Notes: a model not told the origin generated them from the sequence alone. 13,968 nt of DNA from a virus (IMGVR_UViG_2698536458_000002), one strand, 5' to 3'. Positions 1 to 13,807 are shown, numbered from the stretch's first letter. Made by a program: numbers and translations.

Positions 1-2386
1 CCCGCCGCATCTGCGCCGGACTTCCGGCACCGCCCACATAACCACCTTCCGCATAGCCGCGCATCAGCCGGTAGAGATTCCCCACGCCAATCCGGCTGGT
101 TGCCTCCTTCGTGAAGACAAATTCACCACGGTGAACAATCCCCGCTGGCTCATATTTGCCGCCGGTTCCCGTAAATCCCCCGGTTGCAAAATGGAATTTC
201 ACCGCAGCGGCCTGAATGGCTGTACCACCTGACGCGGATGCGCCGCCACCAACAGCCCCGCCAATGGCGCTGCCGATACTCCCGACAATCCCCACCATTG
301 CCTGCTTAAGCAGAATTTCTGTCATCATGGACAGCACGGAGCGGGTGAAGCTGCGCCAGTTCTGTTCACTGCCGGTCAGCATCGCCGCCATATTCTGTGC
401 AATACCATCAAAGGTCTGCGTGGCTGCACTTTTAACCTGTGACATACTGTCCGTGGCGCTCTCTTCCCACTCACTCCAGCCGGACTTCAGGCCTGCCATC
501 CAGCTCCCGCGAAGCTGGTCTTCAGCCGCCCAGGTCTTTTTCTGCTCTGACATGACGTTATTCAGCGCCAGAGGATTATCGCCATACTGTTCCTTCAGGC
601 GCTGTTCCGTGGCTTCCCGCGCTGCCTGCCGGTCAGTCAGCCCCCGGTTTTTCGCATCAATGGCTGCCCGTTTTGCCCGTTGCTGCTGTGCGAATTTATC
701 CGCCTGCTGCGCCAGCGCATTCAGGTGCTCCTGATACGTAACCTTGTCACCAAGTGCAGCCAGCTGGCGTTTGTACTCCAGCGTCTCGTCTTTATGCGCC
801 AGCAGGGATTTCTCCTGTGCGGACAGCTGGCGACGTTGTGCCGCCTCCTCCAGTACCGCGAACTGACTTTCTGCCTTCCACAAATCCCGGCGCTGCTGGC
901 TGATTTTCTCATTCGCTCCGGCATGCTTCTCCAGCGTCCGGAGTTCTGCCTGAAGCGTCAGCAGGGCCGCATGAGCACTGTCTTCCTGACGATCGCCCGC
1001 ATACACCTTCACGCCGGACTGTTTCGGCTTTTTCAGCGTCGCTTCATAATCCTTTTTCGCCGCCGCCATCAGCGTGTTGTAATCTGCCTGCAGGATTTTT
1101 CCGTCTTTCAGTGCCTTGTTCAGTTCTTCCTGACGGGCGGTATATTTCTCCAGCGGCGTCTGCAGCCGTTCGTAAGCCTTCTGCGCCTCTTCGGTATATT
1201 TCAGCCGTGACGCTTCGGTATCGCTCTGCTGCTGCGCATTTTTGTCCTGTTGACGCTGTTGATCTACCCTCTTTTGGGCTGCATCCCGCTCCAGGCGTTT
1301 TTTTTCACGATCATCCCAGTAACGCGCCCGTGCTTCATCGTTAACGAAATAATCATCCTTGCGCAGATTCCAGATGTCGTCTGCTTTCTTAAACGCAGCC
1401 TCTGCCTTAATCAGCATCTCCTGCGCGGTATCAGGACGACCAATATCCAGCACCGCATCCCACATGGATTTGAATGCACGTGCAGTCCTGTCTGCCCAGG
1501 TCTCCAGCGTGCCCATGTTCTCTTTCAGGCGGCGGGTCTGGTCATCAAACCCTTTCGTTGCGGCCTCGTTCGCCGCCTGCAATGCCCCGGCTTCATCGCC
1601 GGAACGCTGCAACTGAGCAACATACGCAATCTGCTCCGCCGTCACGTTATGGAACTGGCGTGCCATCGCCGTCAGCCCCGACGTCGGGTCTGTGGTCAGC
1701 TTCCCGAAGGCTTCAGCGACCTTGTCCACCTCCACGCCGGATGCATAGGAGAAACGCGCCACACTCTGGCTGATGGACGCAATCTGAGCCTCACCGCTTA
1801 CCCCCGCCTTAACCAGTGCGCTGAGTGACTCGCTGGTCTGGTTAAACGTCAGCCCTGCCGCCTGCCCGGCTCTGGACAGGACCAGCATACGATCTGCCGT
1901 CAGTCCCGCCTGATTACCGGAAAGGACCAGCGTTTTGTTGAAATCGGACAGGGTTGAGTTGCCCTGATACCAGGCATACGCCAGCGCACCGGTCGCCACC
2001 GCCAGCGAGGTGGCCCCCACCATCGGCAGGGTGATCGCGCCGGCAAGCCCCCTGAACATGGGGATCATCCCGCCGAAGGAGTCCTTAACCTGACCACCCT
2101 GTTGCAGCAGGATCAGCCAGGGATTCTGCCCCCCTGCAAGCTGCGTGGCCACGTCGGTGAACTGTGCAGGCAGCATACGCATGGCGGCTTTATACTGCCC
2201 GACGGAAATCCCCGCTTTCTGTGCAGCCAGCGCCTGTCGGCTCAGCGACTGTTCAACGACTGCCGCTGTTTTTTTCGCATCACTTTCCGTACCGGAAAAA
2301 TGACGCCTGACTCTGGCCATCTGCTCGTCAAATCTGGCCGCATCCAGACTCAAATCAACGACCAGATCGCCTACCGGTTCAGCCAT
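1..2386 (-). CDS. H: Tail tape-measure protein H, 3'-truncated by the window start (about 795 of about 853 codons present)
   Basis: Minus-strand ATG at 2386..2384 gives MAEPVGDLVVDLSLD..., matching lambda gpH from memory. The frame stays open to base 2. Start lies 8 nt inside the T frame end, as in lambda. No single ORF-track entry because the frame runs off the window. Confidence 0.9.
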   Translation of the reverse strand, partial: MAEPVGDLVVDLSLDAARFDEQMARVRRHFSGTESDAKKTAAVVEQSLSRQALAAQKAGISVGQYKAAMRMLPAQFTDVATQLAGGQNPWLILLQQGGQVKDSFGGMIPMFRGLAGAITLPMVGATSLAVATGALAYAWYQGNSTLSDFNKTLVLSGNQAGLTADRMLVLSRAGQAAGLTFNQTSESLSALVKAGVSGEAQIASISQSVARFSYASGVEVDKVAEAFGKLTTDPTSGLTAMARQFHNVTAEQIAYVAQLQRSGDEAGALQAANEAATKGFDDQTRRLKENMGTLETWADRTARAFKSMWDAVLDIGRPDTAQEMLIKAEAAFKKADDIWNLRKDDYFVNDEARARYWDDREKKRLERDAAQKRVDQQRQQDKNAQQQSDTEASRLKYTEEAQKAYERLQTPLEKYTARQEELNKALKDGKILQADYNTLMAAAKKDYEATLKKPKQSGVKVYAGDRQEDSAHAALLTLQAELRTLEKHAGANEKISQQRRDLWKAESQFAVLEEAAQRRQLSAQEKSLLAHKDETLEYKRQLAALGDKVTYQEHLNALAQQADKFAQQQRAKRAAIDAKNRGLTDRQAAREATEQRLKEQYGDNPLALNNVMSEQKKTWAAEDQLRGSWMAGLKSGWSEWEESATDSMSQVKSAATQTFDGIAQNMAAMLTGSEQNWRSFTRSVLSMMTEILLKQAMVGIVGSIGSAIGGAVGGGASASGGTAIQAAAVKFHFATGGFTGTGGKYEPAGIVHRGEFVFTKEATSRIGVGNLYRLMRGYAEGGYVGGAGSPAQMRR

Positions 2387-3217
2387 ACCGGACTCCTCCT
2401 GCGATCCCTTCTGATACTGTCATCAGCATTACGTCATCCTCCGTCATGTCCGCCACATCCGGGGAAGCGGGGATAACTTCATTCCCGTCCGGGCCAAAGC
2501 GGACACCTCCGGCAAGCCCTGCCGCTTTCTGCATCAGCACATCATCTTCAGGCTCTTCGTCAGCCTCGCGCCGGTTCAGCAGACTGAAATCCAGCGGATG
2601 CATCTCCGGATCGCTGAAAAACAGGCTGAGCACGGTGTACGTCAGCCCGGAAAAGTGCATATCCAGCAGAACATCATGAAAATAATGGGTACTGTAAAAG
2701 CGGTGCCAGTCGGCATACTCCGTGGATGACATCCCGGCAAGCATGGCGCGCCAGTCGGGTCGCCCCATCTCACGCGCCAGTTTCAGGGCAAAACTCAGCT
2801 CACCGTCGAACACTTTCCCGCAGAAACAGGCTCTGCAGGCCCGGCGTCCTCTGCCTGTTCAGGAGCATCATTCACCACAAACTCATACATACCGGACAGC
2901 CGGTACACCACGTTTTCAGCATGAGAAATTGCCTCTGTGGGCCAGGTGGTAAGCACTTCCTGCTCAATCTGTTTAACGGCTTCATTCATGGACGGCATCT
3001 GCGTCTTCTTCGGATGGTTATGCCACAGGGACATCGCAACCACAAAAGCGCCGGTTCTGATGGCGTCTTCCACAGTAAACTTCCGGTTGCTGTCTGACTC
3101 CGCCTGTTCTGCCTGCCGTTTCATCAGGTCGAGATGCTCAATACGCTGCAGGGCTGACAGTTCAGAAAGCGTGACGGTCACACCGTTATGTTCAAATGAT
3201 TCGGTTTTCAGGAACAT
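2379..3217 (-). CDS. Tail assembly chaperone G-T fusion, made by -1 programmed ribosomal frameshift from G into the T frame
   Basis: G frame 3217..2795 contains the slippery heptamer G GGA AAG (plus strand CTTTCCC at 2813..2819) in zero-frame register. The -1 frame continues as ...GKVFDGELSF... to a stop at 2379 (ORF track 2379..2813). The T frame has no plausible independent start. Confidence 0.85.
2795..3217 (-). CDS. G: Tail assembly chaperone G (140 aa)
   Basis: ORF track 2795..3217, MFLKTESFEHNGVTVTLSELSALQRIEHLD...; length and sequence match lambda gpG. 15-nt gap after the V stop, as in lambda. Confidence 0.95.
   Translation of the reverse strand: MFLKTESFEHNGVTVTLSELSALQRIEHLDLMKRQAEQAESDSNRKFTVEDAIRTGAFVVAMSLWHNHPKKTQMPSMNEAVKQIEQEVLTTWPTEAISHAENVVYRLSGMYEFVVNDAPEQAEDAGPAEPVSAGKCSTVS
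2813..2819 (-). other. -1 programmed ribosomal frameshift slippery heptamer (G GGA AAG) for G-T synthesis
   Basis: Heptamer read directly in the zero frame of G at codons 133-135, 6 codons before the G stop. Confidence 0.85.
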
Positions 3218-3232
3218 CGCTGACTCTCCGGA

Positions 3233-3916
3233 TTAACTGGCGGTGACGTTGATTTCTGCAACCGCAGCAAACTCACCATTACCAGATACGACCGGAATGT
3301 TGACCTTGCCTGCAGCAACACCTTTCACGGTGATGGTCATACCACTGACCGACACGGTGGCTTTTGTTTTATCCGCAGACACCGCACGGAAGCTCTTGTC
3401 GGTTGCGCCATCCGGCTGGAATGCCACGGTCAGCGTGGTGCTCTGCCCTTTCACTACGGAAGCACTGGCGGGTGTCACCGTCATGCCGGTCGTCGCCGTC
3501 ACCGTGCTGCGATCTTCTGCCATCGACGGACGTCCCACATTGGTGACCTTCACCGTGCGGGTAATCACCTCCTTCGCCGTCACCGCCTTACCGATACTGC
3601 TGACCCAGCCACGGAACACATCGACCGTGCCGTTCGGGAAGCGGATTTTATAGGCACGGGTATCACCTTCATTAAACCACGCCAGCAGCGCCTGCTGCCC
3701 CTGCTCTCCGGGCATCCACGCCAGCGTGAAATCATCGAGATAGCTGTCGTCATAGGACTCAGCGGTCAGTTCGCCGGGCGTCAGGTCTTTAACTTTTGCC
3801 AGACGCGACCAGTCAACGTCTGAAAGCGGGTTCGCATAAGGGTCACCGCTCCCCTTATAAACCCACAGGGTGGTCCCGGCACCTTTCACCGGCATTGTAG
3901 GATTTGGTACAGGCAT
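3233..3916 (-). CDS. V: Major tail tube protein V (227 aa here, about 19 residues shorter than lambda gpV)
   Basis: ORF track 3233..3946; the real start is the internal ATG at 3916 ([22 protein letters not shown]...), preceded by GAGGA at good spacing. C-terminal Ig-like region ...[19 protein letters not shown] is present. Confidence 0.93.
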
Positions 3917-3923
3917 AGCGTCC

Positions 3924-4319
3924 TCACATTTCATAGATAATGACATAAGTCAGATCGGCTGAACTCCACAGGCCCGCATCATCGTCGCGCCGGTAGTCAT
4001 AGCCGCTGGCCACCATACTGGTGATCAAATCTGACAGTGCCGGGATATCGCTCATCACCGGATAAATCCGGGACTCCATCCACGAATCCAGCTCTGAATC
4101 CGGCACCTGAGCAGGCAGGAAAACTTCGATATGCAGCTCCGCCTGCCAGGTATCGCTGTCCAGCTCTTCGCCCGTGTATTCAGCGCCGGTGAGATAAACG
4201 GCAATTGCCGGAAAATCTTCCTCATCAAAAACAGCGGGGCGACCATCAAAAAGCGTCGCCCCGGTGTCATGCTTCTCCAGTGCATCCAGTACGGCTGCAC
4301 GGAGTTCAGTATGTTTCAT
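3924..4319 (-). CDS. U: Tail terminator protein U (131 aa)
   Basis: ORF track 3924..4319, [48 protein letters not shown]...; matches lambda gpU. 4-nt overlap with the Z stop. Confidence 0.95.
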
Positions 4320-4894
4320 CGCTTTATTACCATTCTCAGTTGATGCTGCAGCGCATAGCCCAGCTCTTTCGGAAGACGTTCACGCCGTATCCGTTCAATA
4401 TTCTGTTTAAACGCCGTGGTCAGCGGCACCGCCATCGGGATTTTCACCACATCAATGGGGTAACGGTTTTTCCCGGCCACACGCTGCATAACATGCCACC
4501 GGCCGTTTTTCAGTTGCTGAATAAACGCGCCGGGAATACGACGGTTACCCACCACAAGCACGCTGCCGCCACCTTTCAGGGATGAACGCTGCCCCTTTTT
4601 ATGACGCCTGCGGCGGGACAGGACAACCCGCGCATTACCCAGCTTGATTACGGGCAAATCCCCCCGGTTAACTTTGATTCTGGCCTGCGGATTTTTGACC
4701 GTGGCCCTTTTCAGCCTGGCCCTTTCCTTTACCAGTTTCCGGCGTACCTTTGTCTCACGGGCAACCTGTGACGCAGACTGCGATATCGCGGATGAAGCAA
4801 CGCGGTTAATGGCCATTGCGGCGGCACCGGGCACCGCCGTTTTGCTGATACGGCTGAGGTTTTCAACGGCCTGCTCAAGACCTTTTATGGCCAT
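4316..4894 (-). CDS. Z: Tail completion protein Z (192 aa)
   Basis: ORF track 4316..4894, MAIKGLEQAVENLSRISKTAVPGAAAMAINRV...; matches lambda gpZ in length and sequence. Confidence 0.95.
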   Translation of the reverse strand: MAIKGLEQAVENLSRISKTAVPGAAAMAINRVASSAISQSASQVARETKVRRKLVKERARLKRATVKNPQARIKVNRGDLPVIKLGNARVVLSRRRRHKKGQRSSLKGGGSVLVVGNRRIPGAFIQQLKNGRWHVMQRVAGKNRYPIDVVKIPMAVPLTTAFKQNIERIRRERLPKELGYALQHQLRMVIKR

Positions 4895-4905
4895 ACATCC
4901 CCCTT

Positions 4906-5259
4906 TCAGCGGCGACGGTTAACGGCAGGCGGTACGCCCCGTCCAAGCCAGAGATGACAACTTCCGCCATCATCCGGCGAAACCCGATCTACCCAGAAAT
5001 TTTCCTCACCGATGGTCAGCGTGTCTCCACGCCGCAGCTGCCGCACCTCATCAGTCCGGACAAACAGGGACGGGCTGGAGCCTTCAACGCGCACGCCCTG
5101 TCCGGCATAGCTGATATTTTCAGGGTCATCAAAAACACCACGTATCACCGCACCTGACTGCTCACCGGATGTCATGGTGGCTGACGTTCCCATGTACCCG
5201 CGTATCGTTTCATCGGCGCGGGCAATGGCAGCATCGAACAGGTTATCGAAATCAGCCAC
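4906..5259 (-). CDS. FII: Head-tail joining / head completion protein FII (117 aa)
   Basis: ORF track 4906..5259, MADFDNLFDAAIARADETIRGYMGTSATMTSGEQ...; matches lambda gpFII. Confidence 0.95.
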   Translation of the reverse strand: MADFDNLFDAAIARADETIRGYMGTSATMTSGEQSGAVIRGVFDDPENISYAGQGVRVEGSSPSLFVRTDEVRQLRRGDTLTIGEENFWVDRVSPDDGGSCHLWLGRGVPPAVNRRR

Positions 5260-5270
5260 AGCGCCTCCCG

Positions 5271-5669
5271 TTATTGCATTCTGGCCAGGCCGCGCTCTGT
5301 CATTTCGGCTGCCACACCGGCAGAGACACGAAACGCCGTTCCCGGCAGCACAAATGCCACAGGTTTATCCCGCGTGGCGTGAAGTGCATCAGTATGCAGC
5401 GTCACCAGTGCCACGACCGTGACCAGTTCAGCCGTATCCTGAATCACGGTATCCGGCTGCGCTGATACCACCTCATTTTCATGCCCGGTCAGCACATTTT
5501 CCCGGCTGAGAGGGGTGTCCTGACCGGCAGTTTCATCCGTGTCATCAAGCTCTTCTTCCAGCTCTGCCACACGAAGCGCCAGTTCTTCTTTCGTTCCCGT
5601 CAAACTGACATCGCGGTTCAATTGCTCACCCAGCTCCTGAAGACGGGCAATCAGTTCATCTTTCGTCAT
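5271..5669 (-). CDS. FI: DNA packaging / head assembly protein FI (132 aa)
   Basis: ORF track 5271..5708; start chosen at the internal ATG at 5669 (MTKDELIARLQELGEQLNRDVSLTGTKEELALRV...), preceded by GGAGGAG at about 5 nt spacing. Length matches lambda gpFI. Confidence 0.9.
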   Translation of the reverse strand: MTKDELIARLQELGEQLNRDVSLTGTKEELALRVAELEEELDDTDETAGQDTPLSRENVLTGHENEVVSAQPDTVIQDTAELVTVVALVTLHTDALHATRDKPVAFVLPGTAFRVSAGVAAEMTERGLARMQ

Positions 5670-5680
5670 GAACTCCTCCA

Positions 5681-5708
5681 CAGAGAGAAAATGGCCCCGA
5701 AGGGCCAT
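5681..5708 (-). terminator. Stem-loop (7-bp GC-rich stem, UUCG tetraloop) followed by a U/C-rich tract in the E-FI intergenic region; candidate partial terminator or mRNA-stabilising hairpin
   Basis: Sense strand reads TAA-TC-ATGGCCC-TTCG-GGGCCAT-TTTCTCTCTG-TGGAGGAGTTC-ATG. Perfect 7-bp stem 3 nt after the E stop, followed by the FI Shine-Dalgarno. Confidence 0.45.
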
Positions 5709-5710
5709 GA

Positions 5711-6736
5711 TTACGCCAGTTGAACGGACACGAACTCATCAGGATCAGCCAGCAGCATCAGCGGTGCTGACTGAATCATGGTGAACTCACGCGCCGGATC
5801 GCCGGTGGTCACCCAGTTTTTCGGGTAACGGGCAGAAGCGTTAATGCCTTCGCGCTGTGCGTCCGCATCCTGAATGCAGCCATAGGTGCGCAGACCGCGA
5901 GCCTGAGTGTTCCCCAGCACCATCGTGTTGTCCGGCAGGAAGTTCTTTTTGACGCCGTTTTCCACGTACTGTCCGGAATACACGACGATGGCCACATCGC
6001 CATACATTCCCTTATAGGACACCGCTTTGCCCAGGTCTTTTACCGCTGTCTCCAGCTCGGAATGAGAGCCGCGACGGGTATCCAGCTTCTCCTTGACGGC
6101 TTTGAAGGAACGGAACAGCGCCCAGCCTTTCGGGTCAAACACGATGATATTCACCACACCGCTGGCGTTCAGCGCGTAGGCTTCGATATCGTCGGTCGGG
6201 TCATACGTGGACTTGTCACGCTTGCTCCACTCCGTGACGCCGGACTGTGTGATGTTGTTCGCCGCACTGCGGCCCATATCCACCTCAACCGGATCGAAGG
6301 CTTCACCGGTCATGGTGTATTTGCCCTTGAGCACGGCAGAAACTGCCTGCATCTCTTCGACCTGAGCAATGGCCAGCTCTTCGTCACGCATGTTCTGCAT
6401 GATGATGCGACGGCGGCGGTAAGCCGGGTCCGCCAGATTCTGCGGATCTTCATCCGGCAGGCGACGCAGGGTCATCTGCGGATTCACCTCATGCTTGGGT
6501 TTGACATATCCCGGCGTAAATTCAGAGGTGGAGCCGCCACGGGAACGGATAACCTCACCGGAAACAATCGGCGAAACGTACAGCGCCATGTTTACCAGTC
6601 CCGGAATTTGTGAGAGATAGACTTTCTCCGTAGTGAAGGGATAGCTCTCACGGAAAAAGAGACGCAGAAACAGCGGATCAAACTTAAATTTCTGCTCATT
6701 TGCCGCCAGCAGCTGGGCGGTTGTGTACATCGACAT
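5711..6736 (-). CDS. E: Major capsid protein E (341 aa)
   Basis: ORF track 5711..6763; start chosen at the ATG at 6736 (MSMYTTAQLLAANEQKFKFDPLFLRLFFRESYPFTTEKVYLSQIPG...), matching lambda gpE length and sequence. Confidence 0.95.
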   Translation of the reverse strand: MSMYTTAQLLAANEQKFKFDPLFLRLFFRESYPFTTEKVYLSQIPGLVNMALYVSPIVSGEVIRSRGGSTSEFTPGYVKPKHEVNPQMTLRRLPDEDPQNLADPAYRRRRIIMQNMRDEELAIAQVEEMQAVSAVLKGKYTMTGEAFDPVEVDMGRSAANNITQSGVTEWSKRDKSTYDPTDDIEAYALNASGVVNIIVFDPKGWALFRSFKAVKEKLDTRRGSHSELETAVKDLGKAVSYKGMYGDVAIVVYSGQYVENGVKKNFLPDNTMVLGNTQARGLRTYGCIQDADAQREGINASARYPKNWVTTGDPAREFTMIQSAPLMLLADPDEFVSVQLA

Positions 6737-6749
6737 AAAAAAATCCCGT

Positions 6750-6774
6750 AAAAAAAGCCACACAGGCGGCCTTT
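6750..6774 (-). terminator. Short hairpin plus T7 tract in the D-E intergenic region; weak intrinsic-terminator-like element
   Basis: Sense strand reads CTAAAG-GCCGC-CTGT-GTGGC-TTTTTTT-ACGGGATTTTTTT-ATG. 5-bp stem including one G-U pair, 4-nt loop, then a run of 7 T, with a second T7 run directly before the E start. Confidence 0.3.
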
Positions 6775-6791
6775 AGTGATGAAGGGTAAAG

Positions 6792-7124
6792 TTAAACGAT
6801 GCTGATTGCCGTTCCGGCAAACACGGTCCGTTTTTTCGTCTCGTCGCTGGCAGCCTCCGGCCAGAGCACATCCTCATAACGGAACGTGCCGGACTTGTAG
6901 AACGTCAGTGTGGTGCTGGTCTGGTCAGCAGCAACCGCAAGAATGCCAACGGCAGCACCGTCGGTGGTGCCATCCCACGCAACCAGCTTACGGGTGGAGG
7001 TGTCCAGCATCAGCGGGGTCATTGCAGGCGCTTTCGCACTCAATCCGCCGGGCGCGGTTGCGGTATGAGCCGGGTCACTATTGCCCAGCGGCTGGTAATG
7101 GGTAAAGGTTTCTTTGCTCGTCAT
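6792..7124 (-). CDS. D: Head decoration protein D (110 aa)
   Basis: ORF track 6792..7130; start at the second ATG, 7124 ([41 protein letters not shown]...), which has an AAGGGA Shine-Dalgarno at about 7 nt. Matches lambda gpD. Confidence 0.95.
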
Positions 7125-7133
7125 AAACATCCC

Positions 7134-7739
7134 TTACACTGGTGTGTTCAGCAAATCGTTAACGGCATCAGATGCCGGGTTACCTGCAGCCAGCGGTGCC
7201 GGTGCCCCCTGCATCAGACGATCCAGCGCAGTGTCACTGCGCGTCTGTGCACTCTGTGGTGCTGCGGCCAGAATACGGCGGGCCGTTTCCACGGTCATAC
7301 CGGGGGTTTCGGCCAGCACGCGTGCCTGTTCTTCGCGTCCGTGAGCCTCCTCACAGTTGAGGATCCCCATAATGCGACTGTTTTCTGCCGCAACCGCTGC
7401 GGTGATCTGCGCGTTCACGTCCGGCTGCGCCGCGCTGGCGTTCTCGCCCTCCGTCGCTTGCACCACGCCAGTAACGTCAGCCTGCGAAGCAGTGGCTGAA
7501 ACAGTTGTTGATTGAGTCTCTTTGGTCATTCGCCCTCCTGAGAGACGGGATTTACGTGCATCCAGTGCATCACGCATGACGGTGATCGCATCGGTACTGT
7601 TAACAAGTTCATCAGCCAGTCCGGTATCAATGGCCTCCTGACCGCTGTACACTGCAGCCTCGGTATCCAGCACAGCCTGCACGGACAGGCCGGTATATGC
7701 CGACACCTTCTGTGCAAACATCCGGCGGGTTGCATCCAT
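7134..7739 (-). CDS. Nu3: Scaffolding protein Nu3, in-frame internal start within C (201 aa, sharing the C-terminal frame of C)
   Basis: ATG at 7739..7737 is in frame with C at residue 239 (MDATRRMFAQKVSAYTGLSVQ...). The 606-nt length equals lambda Nu3. The internal start is inferred by homology, not independently visible. Confidence 0.75.
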   Translation of the reverse strand: MDATRRMFAQKVSAYTGLSVQAVLDTEAAVYSGQEAIDTGLADELVNSTDAITVMRDALDARKSRLSGGRMTKETQSTTVSATASQADVTGVVQATEGENASAAQPDVNAQITAAVAAENSRIMGILNCEEAHGREEQARVLAETPGMTVETARRILAAAPQSAQTRSDTALDRLMQGAPAPLAAGNPASDAVNDLLNTPV

Positions 7740-8433
7740 CCGGGACTGCAATGTTTCCCGGACATCATCCGGTAGATGGCTGTAGGGGTTGCCATCCACC
7801 TTATGGCTGCCGCTGTAAATCAGCGTGATTTCCACGCCCTGTTTCTCCAGTGCAGCGCCGTAATTACTGTGAGCCATCATGACGCCGATGGAGCCTGTCC
7901 GGGCGGTCTGCGTGACCAGACGCCGGGAGGCGGCACTGGCAAGCAGCTGACCTGCGCTGCAGTTCATGTCATTGGCCAGCGCCCATACCGGCTTTATGTC
8001 ACGCACACGGGCGATGATGTCAGCGCAGTCAAATGCTCCCGCCACCATTCCGCCCGGTGTGTCCATATCGAGCAGAATGCCGTCCACCATCGGGTCGCTG
8101 GCAGCCTGTTGCAGACGGGCGATAATGCCGTTGTAACCGGTCATCCCCGAGTACGGCTGCAGCGCCCGCGTCCGGCTGACCAGCGTGCCGGACACCGGCA
8201 GCACGGCGATGCCGTTCATTACCTGATAACTGCGGGCCTGTCGTGGTCCGTCATCATCACCGGATAACGCCAGCGCCGCGGGTGCCTCTCCGGCAGTCAG
8301 GCTGTCGCCGGATACTGCATCCGTCAGGCAGCTGATCCCAAGCTGGCCTGCAAGCGCACAAAAGAAAACCCGCGCATAGGCGGGTTCAAGCATCAGCGGC
8401 TCATTAAAAGCCATGCTGGCAATATGCGGGAGA

Positions 8434-8453
<20 letters not shown>
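7134..8453 (-). CDS. C: Capsid assembly protease / minor capsid protein C (439 aa, GTG start)
   Basis: ORF track 7134..8588 (484 aa). Start placed at GTG 8453..8451 (VTAELRNLPHIASMAFNEPLMLEPAYARVFF...), giving the lambda gpC length and the lambda-like 20-nt overlap with the end of B. Confidence 0.88.
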
Positions 8454-12134
<3,681 letters not shown>

Positions 12135-12160
<26 letters not shown>

Positions 12161-12680
12161 TCAGCAACCCCGGTATCAGTTCATCCAGCGCGGCTGCTTT
12201 GTTCATGGCTTTGATGATATCCCGTTTCAGGAAATCAACATGTCGGTTTTCCAGTTCCGGAAAACGCCGCTGCACCGACAGGGGGATCCCGTCGAGAATA
12301 CTGGCAATTTCACCTGCGATCCGCGACAGCACGAAAGTACAGAATGCGGTTTCCACCACTTCAGCGGAGTCTCTGGCATTTTTCAGCTCCTGTGCGTCGG
12401 CCTGCGCACGCGTAAGTCGATGGCGTTCGTACTCAATAGTCCCTGGCTGGAGATCTGTCTCGCTGGCCTGCCGCAGTTCTTCAACTTCCCGGCGCAGCTT
12501 TTCGTTCTCAATTTCAGCATCCCTTTCGGCATACCATCTTATAACGGCGGCAGAGTCATAAAGCACCTCATTACCCTTGCCACCGCCTCGCAGAACGGGC
12601 ATTCCCTGTTCCTGCCAGTTCTGAATGGTACGGATACTCGCACCGAAAATGTCAGCCAGCTGCTTTTTGTTGACTTCCAT
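12135..12680 (-). CDS. Nu1: Terminase small subunit Nu1 (181 aa; cosB-binding winged-helix N-terminus)
   Basis: ORF track 12135..12680, MEVNKKQLADIFGASIRTIQNWQEQGMPVLRGGGKGNEVLYDSAAVIRWYAERDAEIENEKL...; matches lambda gpNu1. Confidence 0.97.
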
Positions 12681-12704
12681 TGTTCATTCCACGGACAAAA
12701 ACAG

Positions 12705-12899
12705 AGAAAGGAAACGACAGAGGCCAAAAAGCCCGTTTTCAGCACCTGTCGTTTCCTTTCTTTTCAGGGGGTGTTTTAAATAAAAACATTAGGTTACGGC
12801 GAAGAAGAACGGAAACGCCTTAAACCGGAAAATTGTCATAAATAGCGAAAACCCGCGCGCCTTCCGCCCCGTAACCTGTCGGATCGCCGGAAAGGACCC
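12705..12899 (-). other. cos region, joined form: cosB (R1 12705..12720, R2 12746..12761, IHF site I1 about 12771..12800, R3 about 12801..12820), cosN (12858..12869), cosQ (12893..12899)
   Basis: Reverse complement reads ...GGGTCCTTTCCGGCGATCCGACAGGTTACG-GGGCGGAAGGCG-CGCGGGTTTTCGCTATTTATGACAATTTTCCGGTTTAAGGCGTTTCCGTTCTTCTTC..., then the R2 and R1 elements (AGAAAGGAAACGACAG and its inverse) and the Nu1 ATG. Flanks match the lambda cos region from memory. Confidence 0.85.
12858..12869 (-). other. cosN cohesive-end segment (12-nt overhang position), variant sequence GGGCGGAAGGCG where lambda has GGGCGGCGACCT
   Basis: Position fixed by identical flanking sequence on both sides (GACAGGTTACG upstream, CGCGGGTTTTCGC downstream). 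Confidence 0.7.
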
Positions 12900-12905
12900 G
12901 CAAAA

Positions 12906-12920
12906 TGATAATAATTATCA
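12906..12920. promoter_or_regulatory. Perfect 7-1-7 palindrome TGATAATAATTATCA between cosQ and the plus-strand accessory genes; possible operator (Fur-box-like GATAAT repeats)
   Basis: Exact inverted repeat read from the sequence, AT-rich, resembling the GATAATGATAATCATTATC Fur consensus at about 14 of 19 positions. Function is not established. Confidence 0.25.
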
Positions 12921-13068
12921 TCTACATGTCACAACGTGCATCTACGCCATCAAACCACGTCAAATAATCAATTATGACGCAGGTATCGTATTAATTGATC
13001 TGCATCAACTTAACGTAAAAACAACTTCAGACAATACAAATCAGCGACACTGAATACAGGGCAACCTC

Positions 13069-13302
13069 ATGTCAACGAAGAACAGAACCCGCAGAACAAC
13101 AACCCGCAACATCCGCTTTCCTAACCAAATGATTGAACAAATTAACATCGCTCTTGTTCAAAAAGGGTCCGGGAATTTCTCAGCCTGGGTCATTGAAGCC
13201 TGCCGCCGGAGACTGTGCTCAGAAAAAAGAGTTTCGCCTGAAGCAAACAAAGAAAAGAGTGACATTACTGAATTGCTCAGAAAACAGGTTAGACCAGATT
13301 GA
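13069..13302 (+). CDS. YlcI/YnfO-family (DUF3950) small ribbon-helix-helix-like DNA-binding protein, 77 aa, with a divergent C-terminal tail
   Basis: ORF track 13069..13302, MSTKNRTRRTTTRNIRFPNQMIEQINIALVQKGSGNFSAWVIEACRRRL...; the N-terminal 48 residues match prophage YlcI/YnfO proteins from memory and have an RHH-like strand-helix-helix pattern. Weak AGGG Shine-Dalgarno 7 nt upstream. Confidence 0.8.
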   Translation: MSTKNRTRRTTTRNIRFPNQMIEQINIALVQKGSGNFSAWVIEACRRRLCSEKRVSPEANKEKSDITELLRKQVRPD

Positions 13303-13359
13303 AGCAATTTAGATAATCGTGCAGACTACGCCCCCTCATATCACATGGAAGGTACTACA

Positions 13360-13770
13360 ATGGCTCAGGTTGCCATTTTTAAACAAATATTCGATAAAGT
13401 GCGAAATAATTTAAACTATCACTGGTTTTATTCTGAACTAAAACGTCACAATGTCTCACATTACATTTACTATTTAGCCACAGAGAATATTCATCTTGTT
13501 CTTGAAAACGATAATACGGTTTTAATAAAAGGACAGGGTAAGGTTGTAAATGTAAGATTTTCAAAAAATAAATGCCTTATAGAAGCCACCTTAAAAGGAT
13601 TCAAATCAGGAGAGTTATCATTTTACGAATACAGGAAAAATCTTGCTACAGCAGGGGTTTTCAGATGGATTACAAATATCCACGAAAACAAAAGGTATTA
13701 CTATACCTTTGATAATTCATTACTCTTTACTGAGAACATACAGAACACTACACAAATATTTCCGCACTAA
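13360..13770 (+). CDS. DUF1398-family protein (YdfO/YbcV-like), 136 aa, AT-rich accessory gene; alternative upstream ATG at 13345
   Basis: ORF track 13345..13770 ([63 protein letters not shown]...). The ATG at 13360 is preferred because of a GGAAGG Shine-Dalgarno 7 nt upstream and the 136-aa family length. GC content is much lower than in the structural genes. Confidence 0.8.
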
Positions 13771-13778
13771 ATCATAAC

Positions 13779-13807
13779 GTCCGGTTTCTTCCGTGCCAGA
13801 ACCGGAC
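13779..13807. other. Inverted repeat GTCCGGTT-N13-AACCGGAC (8-bp perfect stem) just downstream of the DUF1398 gene
   Basis: Read directly from the sequence, 9 nt after the TAA at 13768..13770. No strong U tract on either strand, so it is not a canonical intrinsic terminator. Confidence 0.3.

Follow-up and report, generated by a model that had tools for sequence, protein, structure and literature searches.

The two small genes that occupy positions 13,069 to 13,770 of the window, the whole 13,968-nucleotide stretch of viral DNA analysed here, are the already known ynfO and ydfO genes of lambda-like E. coli prophages and constitute the Qin-type allele of a variable slot. They are best read as two independent accessory genes, or “morons”, standing in the slot between Rz and cos, a reading that is probably correct. 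Morons, in the concept of Hendrix, are add-on genes expressed in the lysogen, such as lambda bor and lom; the genes described here are likewise present or absent between collinear relatives at a module boundary and, in the case of ydfO, deviate in base composition (31% GC against 57%). The two genes are also likely to be separable from each other rather than to form a functional couple, with readthrough from ynfO into ydfO being possible in their 57-nt layout. The main features, in window coordinates, are the following.

13069-13302, + strand: ynfO-type gene encoding a 77-aa DUF3950 (YlcI/YnfO) protein, identified with Pfam and NCBIfam
13360-13770, + strand: ydfO-type gene (31% GC) encoding a 136-aa DUF1398 protein with a duplicated alpha2-beta3 fold
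13347-13352, + strand: Shine-Dalgarno sequence GGAAGG of ydfO, read from the sequence and kept in Qin, lambda and DLP12
12135-12680, - strand: Nu1 (Pfam Phage_Nu1, E 2e-101)
10235-12160, - strand: terminase A
12858-12869, no strand assigned: cosN, a 12-nt cohesive-end variant, located by alignment with lambda, Qin and DLP12

The gene pair and the slot beside cos

Both open reading frames are members of described families. The upstream one scores 72.8 bits (E 2e-20) against Pfam DUF3950, whose curated cutoff is 25, and 35.2 bits against NCBIfam YlcI_YnfO_N (curated cutoff 30); the downstream one covers all 119 positions of the Pfam DUF1398 model with 147.1 bits (E 3e-43) for a cutoff of 22. They lie on the + strand beyond cosN, divergent from Nu1 and the terminase, are separated by a spacer of 57 nt (13303-13359), and share one reading frame with a single in-frame TGA between them. 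The preliminary description had proposed these two families and this 57-bp same-strand geometry, and the HMM matches and ORF coordinates bear out both; its remark on the low GC of the DUF1398 gene is equally accurate (31.4%, against 44% for the DUF3950 gene and 57% for positions 1-12700 of the window). For ydfO, the ORF listing also offers a longer option of 141 aa starting at ATG 13345; ATG 13360 is preferred on account of the Shine-Dalgarno sequence ahead of it and of the 136-aa length in RefSeq. Comparison of the ynfO core with phage BP-4795 gives a pS of 0.485 and a pN of 0.081 (pN/pS 0.17), and comparison of ydfO with its Qin allele gives a pS of 0.44 and a pN of 0.13; both genes are under purifying selection and are thus real genes. 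In an E. coli locus 99% identical to the window, the terminase, portal, protease, decoration and capsid genes are annotated on the other side of the pair, while past the window's end this prophage carries a KilA-N gene and a lysis cassette on the strand opposite to ynfO and ydfO.

In E. coli K-12, the Qin prophage displays the order nohA (- strand), ynfO (+ strand, 77 aa), 57 nt and ydfO (+ strand, 136 aa); the Qin precedent that had been cited at the outset, ynfO then ydfO near a Nu1 homologue, agrees with this annotation. Lambda, DE3, HK630 and DLP12 likewise have homologues of the two genes in the Rz/bor-cos slot, on the bor strand and opposite to S, R, Rz and Nu1, and the same ynfO-ydfO allele is found in the isolated phages PhiR49_1, Kati, Chlobot and ev099. 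That this is a recurring cargo position of lambdoid prophages, as had been suggested, is confirmed by Qin, DLP12, lambda and the close viral contigs. The content of the slot varies: ydfO; ybcW, ybcV and bor together; bor only; or nothing. Among 5,426 complete E. coli genomes, the 1.27-kb region has matches in 4,677 (covering 80% or more of it in 2,636), the DUF3950 core in 4,184 and ybcW in 2,009, with 9,861 DUF3950 places in all; the corresponding proteins are named “YlcI/YnfO family protein” and “DUF1398 domain-containing protein” in RefSeq. With both genes present in most E. coli genomes and in lambda itself, any function found for them would have very wide application.

Matches of the genome-collection scan in unrelated taxa were excluded as lambda control-DNA contamination. 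Contigs or “plasmids” of about 3.55 kb deposited for unrelated bacteria, such as CP136411.1 (“Arcanobacterium hippocoleae plasmid unnamed1”) and the Brevibacillus fluminis “plasmid pContig2”, are 99.8-100% identical to a 3,447-bp lambda segment running through bor, p78, p79 and ylcI. These lambda-identical contigs almost certainly stem from the control DNA of sequencing runs, submitted as if it were part of the genomes; ynfO/ylcI appear among the genes of A. hippocoleae in a published genome paper (PMC11171008).

The cos site next to the pair is itself a variant. On the + strand, cosN reads CGCCTTCCGCCC, which yields the cohesive end GGGCGGAAGGCG; this differs at 5 of 12 positions from the GGGCGGCGACCT of lambda, Qin and DLP12, whereas the cos flanks are near-identical. 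A pattern count over 83 fetched cos-bearing loci gives 75 of the lambda type and 8 of the window type. The variant may confer a different cohesive-end specificity.

The slot has also been drawn into the conflict between phage and host immunity. Lambda p79 activates the Vulcan NADase defence, and lambda phages escaping Vulcan lose p79, according to the authors likely by recombination with Qin (bioRxiv 10.64898/2026.09.04.749371). The link between p79 and Vulcan places the Rz-cos slot under immune selection, and the sensing of p79 by host immune systems may maintain the polymorphism between p79-bearing and p79-less slots. The window has the p79-less, Qin-type arrangement seen in the Vulcan escapers, the segment being missing between 13218 and 13283.

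The two proteins and the surrounding regulatory sequences

Alignment of homologues divides ynfO into a conserved core, codons 1-50 (13069-13218), and a variable C-terminal tail (13219-13299); MSTKNRTRRTTTRNIRFPNQMIEQINIAL.QKGSGNFSAWVIEACRRRL in the core is almost invariant, whereas the tail varies freely. The AF2 model of YnfO shows an extended segment (residues 1-18) followed by two helices (19-32 and 34-54), with a pLDDT of about 80 for the core and 67 overall; it is a model of the monomer, and the strand of the ribbon-helix-helix (RHH) fold forms only in the dimer. In hhalign, NIRFP of YnfO falls on NLRWP of the Arc/Mnt profile in the correct register (P 0.019). The top Foldseek match, NikR, is an RHH protein, with an E value (5.8) that is not significant, and searches of the Pfam and PDB profiles return no RHH match. 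The earlier label “RHH-like” is weakly supported: the extended N-terminus, the two helices predicted by AF2 and the Arc/Mnt register agree with it, whereas none of the matches is significant. The YnfO core is predicted to be an Arc/Mnt-type RHH DNA binder, which is likely but unproven. A DUF3950 match in phage vB_KppS-Ant (40% identity) was dropped, as an annotated gene of the opposite strand overlaps it.

The structure of YdfO has been solved by structural genomics (PDB 2HH8, a solution structure), and the window protein displays the same YdfO fold, with its duplicated alpha2-beta3 unit; compared with known toxin folds and families, this fold bears no resemblance to any of them. In published work, CRISPRi mapping found the lambda homologue p78 to be non-essential (PMC10695390), and a glycogen screen (PMC2853380) includes a score for the ASKA overexpression clone of ybcV, the ydfO homologue in DLP12; this implies that ybcV overexpression does not prevent growth. 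ydfO is induced 12- to 117-fold by ionic liquid (PMC4077768).

Several statements on this family were set aside. The protection against oxidative stress credited to YdfO overexpression (PMC4077768) goes back to Wang et al. 2010 (PMC3105296), who report YfdO of prophage CPS-53 and never ydfO; this mix-up of names could propagate in the literature. The designation of ydfO as essential comes from TraDIS only (PMC5821084) and conflicts with the viable Qin deletion of Wang et al. 2010 (PMC3105296); we infer a technical effect on a short, AT-rich and repeated gene. For DUF1398, “head protein” (PHROG 413 and RefSeq phage records) finds no support, lambda p78 being non-essential, and neither does “putative envelope protein” (lambda records), the protein having no hydrophobic N-terminal segment; both labels look unfounded and are being propagated.

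The pair is surrounded, and in part overlapped, by the following putative regulatory elements.

12870-13068, + strand: conserved non-coding stretch between cos and ynfO, near-identical in the window, Qin, lambda and DLP12, with inverted repeats I4 and I1
12905-12921: perfect palindrome ATGATAAT-A-ATTATCAT
12932-12905, - strand: promoter-like GTGACA-16-TATCAT (10/12), pointing to cos and Nu1 and overlapping the palindrome
13283-13299, + strand: PdhR-box-like AACAGGTTAGACCAGAT inside the 3' end of ynfO, found by alignment
13290-13317, + strand: sigma-70 promoter-like TAGACC-16-GATAAT (9/12 match to consensus), upstream of ydfO
13779-13807, + strand: hairpin GTCCGGTT...AACCGGAC, 9 nt past the ydfO stop (-13.4 kcal/mol, z -1.6)

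The PdhR-box-like sequence marks, on the right, the point from which the window is again homologous to lambda and DLP12. Qin AAcaGGTcagACCAgaT and the ybcV/ybcW site of DLP12 are PdhR targets in gSELEX, and the ybcV mRNA is about 10-fold lower in a pdhR mutant (PMC7660256). The position of the box where homology resumes, together with the PdhR dependence of ybcV, suggests that the DUF1398 gene has a regulatory region of its own, and PdhR offers a concrete handle on the regulation of ydfO/ybcV. The promoter-like site at 13290-13317 overlaps the box; it is a weak candidate because its spacing is not conserved in lambda. Downstream of ydfO, the hairpin has no T-run, and in Qin its stem is kept by a paired change (GTCCGGCT/AGCCGGAC); it may serve as a transcript end or stabiliser.

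On the cos side of ynfO, the conserved stretch with its palindrome is a candidate operator and regulatory region, judging from sequence features; lambda, Qin and DLP12 keep the palindrome and the promoter-like site (12905-12932) with minor differences. A consensus scan found no + strand promoter-like site of at least 9/12 upstream of ynfO, a repeat search found no operator-like repeat common to the upstream regions of ynfO and ydfO, and Rfam returned chance miRNA matches only, near Nu1.

Separate or coupled genes

The preliminary description had likened the two genes to a regulator-effector or antitoxin-toxin pair. This comparison is unsupported: the two families occur separately, the pair is split in lambda and DLP12, and a mosaic joint lies between the genes. 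Conserved co-occurrence of the two families, surveyed across phages and genomes, is largely absent. By tblastn, DUF3950 is found in 155 and DUF1398 in 43 of 50,697 phage records, and at least 112 of the 155 have DUF3950 without DUF1398; the collection is redundant, with many lambda and Stx records, and these counts are not those of independent events. In the phages BP-4795, 2851 and Lys8385Vzw, annotated HNH-terminase phages of which two out of three are Stx-converting, the packaging module is unrelated to Nu1/A and DUF3950 is the sole gene on its strand, between the lysis genes and the HNH-TerS-TerL module; the homology of these phages with the window starts exactly at the DUF3950 start codon. 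In ev207, ylcI is followed by bor only. In BP-4795, 2851 and Lys8385Vzw, DUF3950 lies inside the late operon, and 41 bp separate it from the gene for the HNH endonuclease of a P27/HK97-type module.

The DUF1398 family, for its part, extends beyond prophages of this type. A profile scan with one genome per species detects it in Escherichia (YcgX type), Citrobacter, Klebsiella, Kluyvera, Raoultella, Pseudocitrobacter, Salmonella and Epilithonimonas, the distant proteins sharing 24-53% identity with the window protein. Their genes are flanked by unrelated chromosomal genes, none of them consistent among the loci inspected (the K-12 ycgX gene adjoins bluR), and a dedicated DUF3950 HMM finds no DUF3950 within 5 kb of DUF1398 homologues below about 55% identity.

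Where the two families do stand together, the boundary between them is a site of recombination. The segment of about 560 bp that carries p79/ybcW in lambda and DLP12 cuts, at its left end, the ynfO tail after codon 50, and its right end lies at GGTCAGACCAGATTGA, which precedes the DUF1398 start by 60-77 nt. The window ynfO is about 98.5% identical in DNA to that of Qin, whereas the window YdfO shares only 76% protein identity with the Qin and lambda alleles. DUF1398 follows DUF3950 after about 57 nt in 79 of the 80 closest viral contigs, in the form of two alleles about 24% apart in protein with a nearly identical ynfO ahead; near-identical ynfO genes combined with divergent ydfO alleles indicate a recombination joint between the two genes. 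Laboratory experiments offer a case of such exchange in the lambda escapers of Vulcan, whose loss of p79 is considered by the authors likely to stem from recombination with Qin. The adjacency of ynfO and ydfO is thus synteny within one allele of a variable slot and not evidence of a two-component system, and ynfO/ylcI and ydfO/ybcV are best treated separately in experiments. An apparent natural fusion of DUF3950 and DUF1398 (P0014, 233 aa, 761 member sequences, and also P0010) was discarded as an artefact in which the TGA at codon 78 is called Trp, and programmed readthrough of the in-frame TGA was rejected as well, having no supporting evidence and a frame relation that is absent in lambda and DLP12.

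These observations weigh unequally on the two readings in which the genes act together. A type II toxin-antitoxin system, in which YnfO would be an RHH antitoxin neutralising a DUF1398 toxin, is suggested by the layout, a small putative RHH gene upstream of a larger uncharacterised one in a prophage; it is nevertheless largely refuted and must be considered extremely improbable, as either family commonly occurs on its own, the two genes are split apart in lambda and DLP12, their alleles recombine independently, and the chromosomal homologue ycgX has no partner. Moreover, the ASKA ybcV overexpression clone is not lost (PMC2853380), the YdfO fold is unlike known toxins, PADLOC gives no match, and the 57-nt gap with its own Shine-Dalgarno sequence differs from the usual overlap or coupling. 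Less remote, though still unlikely, is a local regulator-cargo module in which YnfO would act as an RHH repressor of the leftward promoters of the slot, that of ydfO included, the cargo being ydfO, ybcV or bor. Small RHH genes often head accessory cassettes, and such a module would account for the 57-nt same-strand spacing in 79 of 80 close loci, for the overlap of ydfO regulatory sequence with the ynfO tail, and for the ylcI of ev207 followed by bor on the same strand. Against it, BP-4795, 2851 and Lys8385Vzw have no downstream gene on the same strand and yet keep the core under purifying selection, an opposite-strand gene intervenes in lambda and DLP12, the regions upstream of ynfO and ydfO have no motif in common, and bor has its own annotated promoter.

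Two further readings concern what either gene could do on its own, and both are quite improbable. In one, ydfO or ynfO would be a defence or counter-defence cargo, protecting the lysogen or blocking a host immune system; this is in keeping with a slot engaged in phage-immunity conflict, where the neighbouring p79 of lambda triggers Vulcan and escapers gain the p79-less layout, with the nature of ydfO as an AT-rich, variable and lysogen-oriented cargo, and with one phage-resistant APEC mutant, an anecdotal case, that had lost ydfO (PMC8711792). However, no phenotype has been reported, neither an enzymatic nor a sensor domain is present, homologues outside prophages stand on the chromosome among unrelated neighbours, and a search of PADLOC-DB v2 gives no match for DUF3950 and, for DUF1398, only Csx23 at chance level (E 0.023). 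In the other, the DUF3950 protein, encoded antisense in the late operon and ahead of the first packaging gene with two different terminase modules, would be a lysogen-expressed guard that, by binding DNA near cos or through transcriptional interference, silences the terminase and head genes and hence chromosomal cos cutting; or else it would gate expression of the accessory slot.

In the reading that we favour, two independent morons, both genes run against the late transcript, which extends from the lysis genes via cos into Nu1/A; to judge from strand and position, they are placed like bor and would be readable in the lysogen rather than within the late operon. YnfO is a small basic protein whose 50-residue core most likely folds as an RHH dimer and binds DNA. 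In Nu1-type as well as in HNH/TerS-type phages, the DUF3950 gene immediately precedes the first packaging gene and diverges from it; its core is the constant element linked to the packaging genes, whatever stands downstream, and its role could be autoregulation or the repression of a cos-proximal promoter. YdfO, with its distinctive fold, would be soluble and located in the cytoplasm; its gene is an AT-rich cargo that probably has its own upstream regulatory region, including the PdhR box, which is retained on both sides of the rearrangement. Swapped by recombination independently of ynfO, ydfO would be dispensable for lytic growth and non-toxic, to judge from lambda p78 and ASKA ybcV, and its product most likely binds a host protein or a small ligand and so may adjust the physiology of the lysogen.

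Comparison with known systems

The morons bor and lom of lambda share with ynfO-ydfO their insertion between conserved modules, a deviant composition, a variable presence and an orientation against the late operon. Morons of the bor/lom type are expressed in the lysogen; in the window, ynfO-ydfO show a weak promoter match and a hairpin without a T-run, and for the K-12 homologues, which stand in cryptic prophages, expression and regulation have been published. By comparison with Arc and Mnt of phage P22 (Pfam PF03869), YnfO has a similar size, a basic N-terminal arm, an N-x-R-x-P strand motif and two helices, but the likeness comes without a significant sequence or profile match (P 0.019, with Pfam silent). 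The YdfO structure in PDB 2HH8 is that of a different allele and carries no functional annotation.

At the right end of lambda, an unannotated ylcI homologue (48139-48303) is followed by p79, p78 and bor, and the corresponding order in DLP12 is ylcI-ybcW-ybcV-borD; both thus hold a homologous DUF3950 core and a DUF1398 gene in the same slot and orientation as in the window. Lambda and DLP12 are near-identical to the window from Nu1 through cos to codon 50 of ynfO, and again from the PdhR box to the DUF1398 gene. Between these two stretches, they carry about 560 bp extra with the opposite-strand late gene p79/ybcW, whereas the window has no p79, and they have a different YlcI tail (64 aa).

The closest relative is the Qin pair, ynfO (b4533) and ydfO (b1549), which resembles that of the window in families, order, strand, protein lengths (77 and 136 aa), 57-nt spacer and position beside a Nu1 homologue and cos. 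The two ynfO genes differ by about 1.5% in DNA over the core, while the YdfO proteins are only 76% identical and the cosN sites differ at 5 of 12 positions. Downstream of Nu1, finally, the morphogenesis genes look complete in the window, whereas Qin is a remnant.
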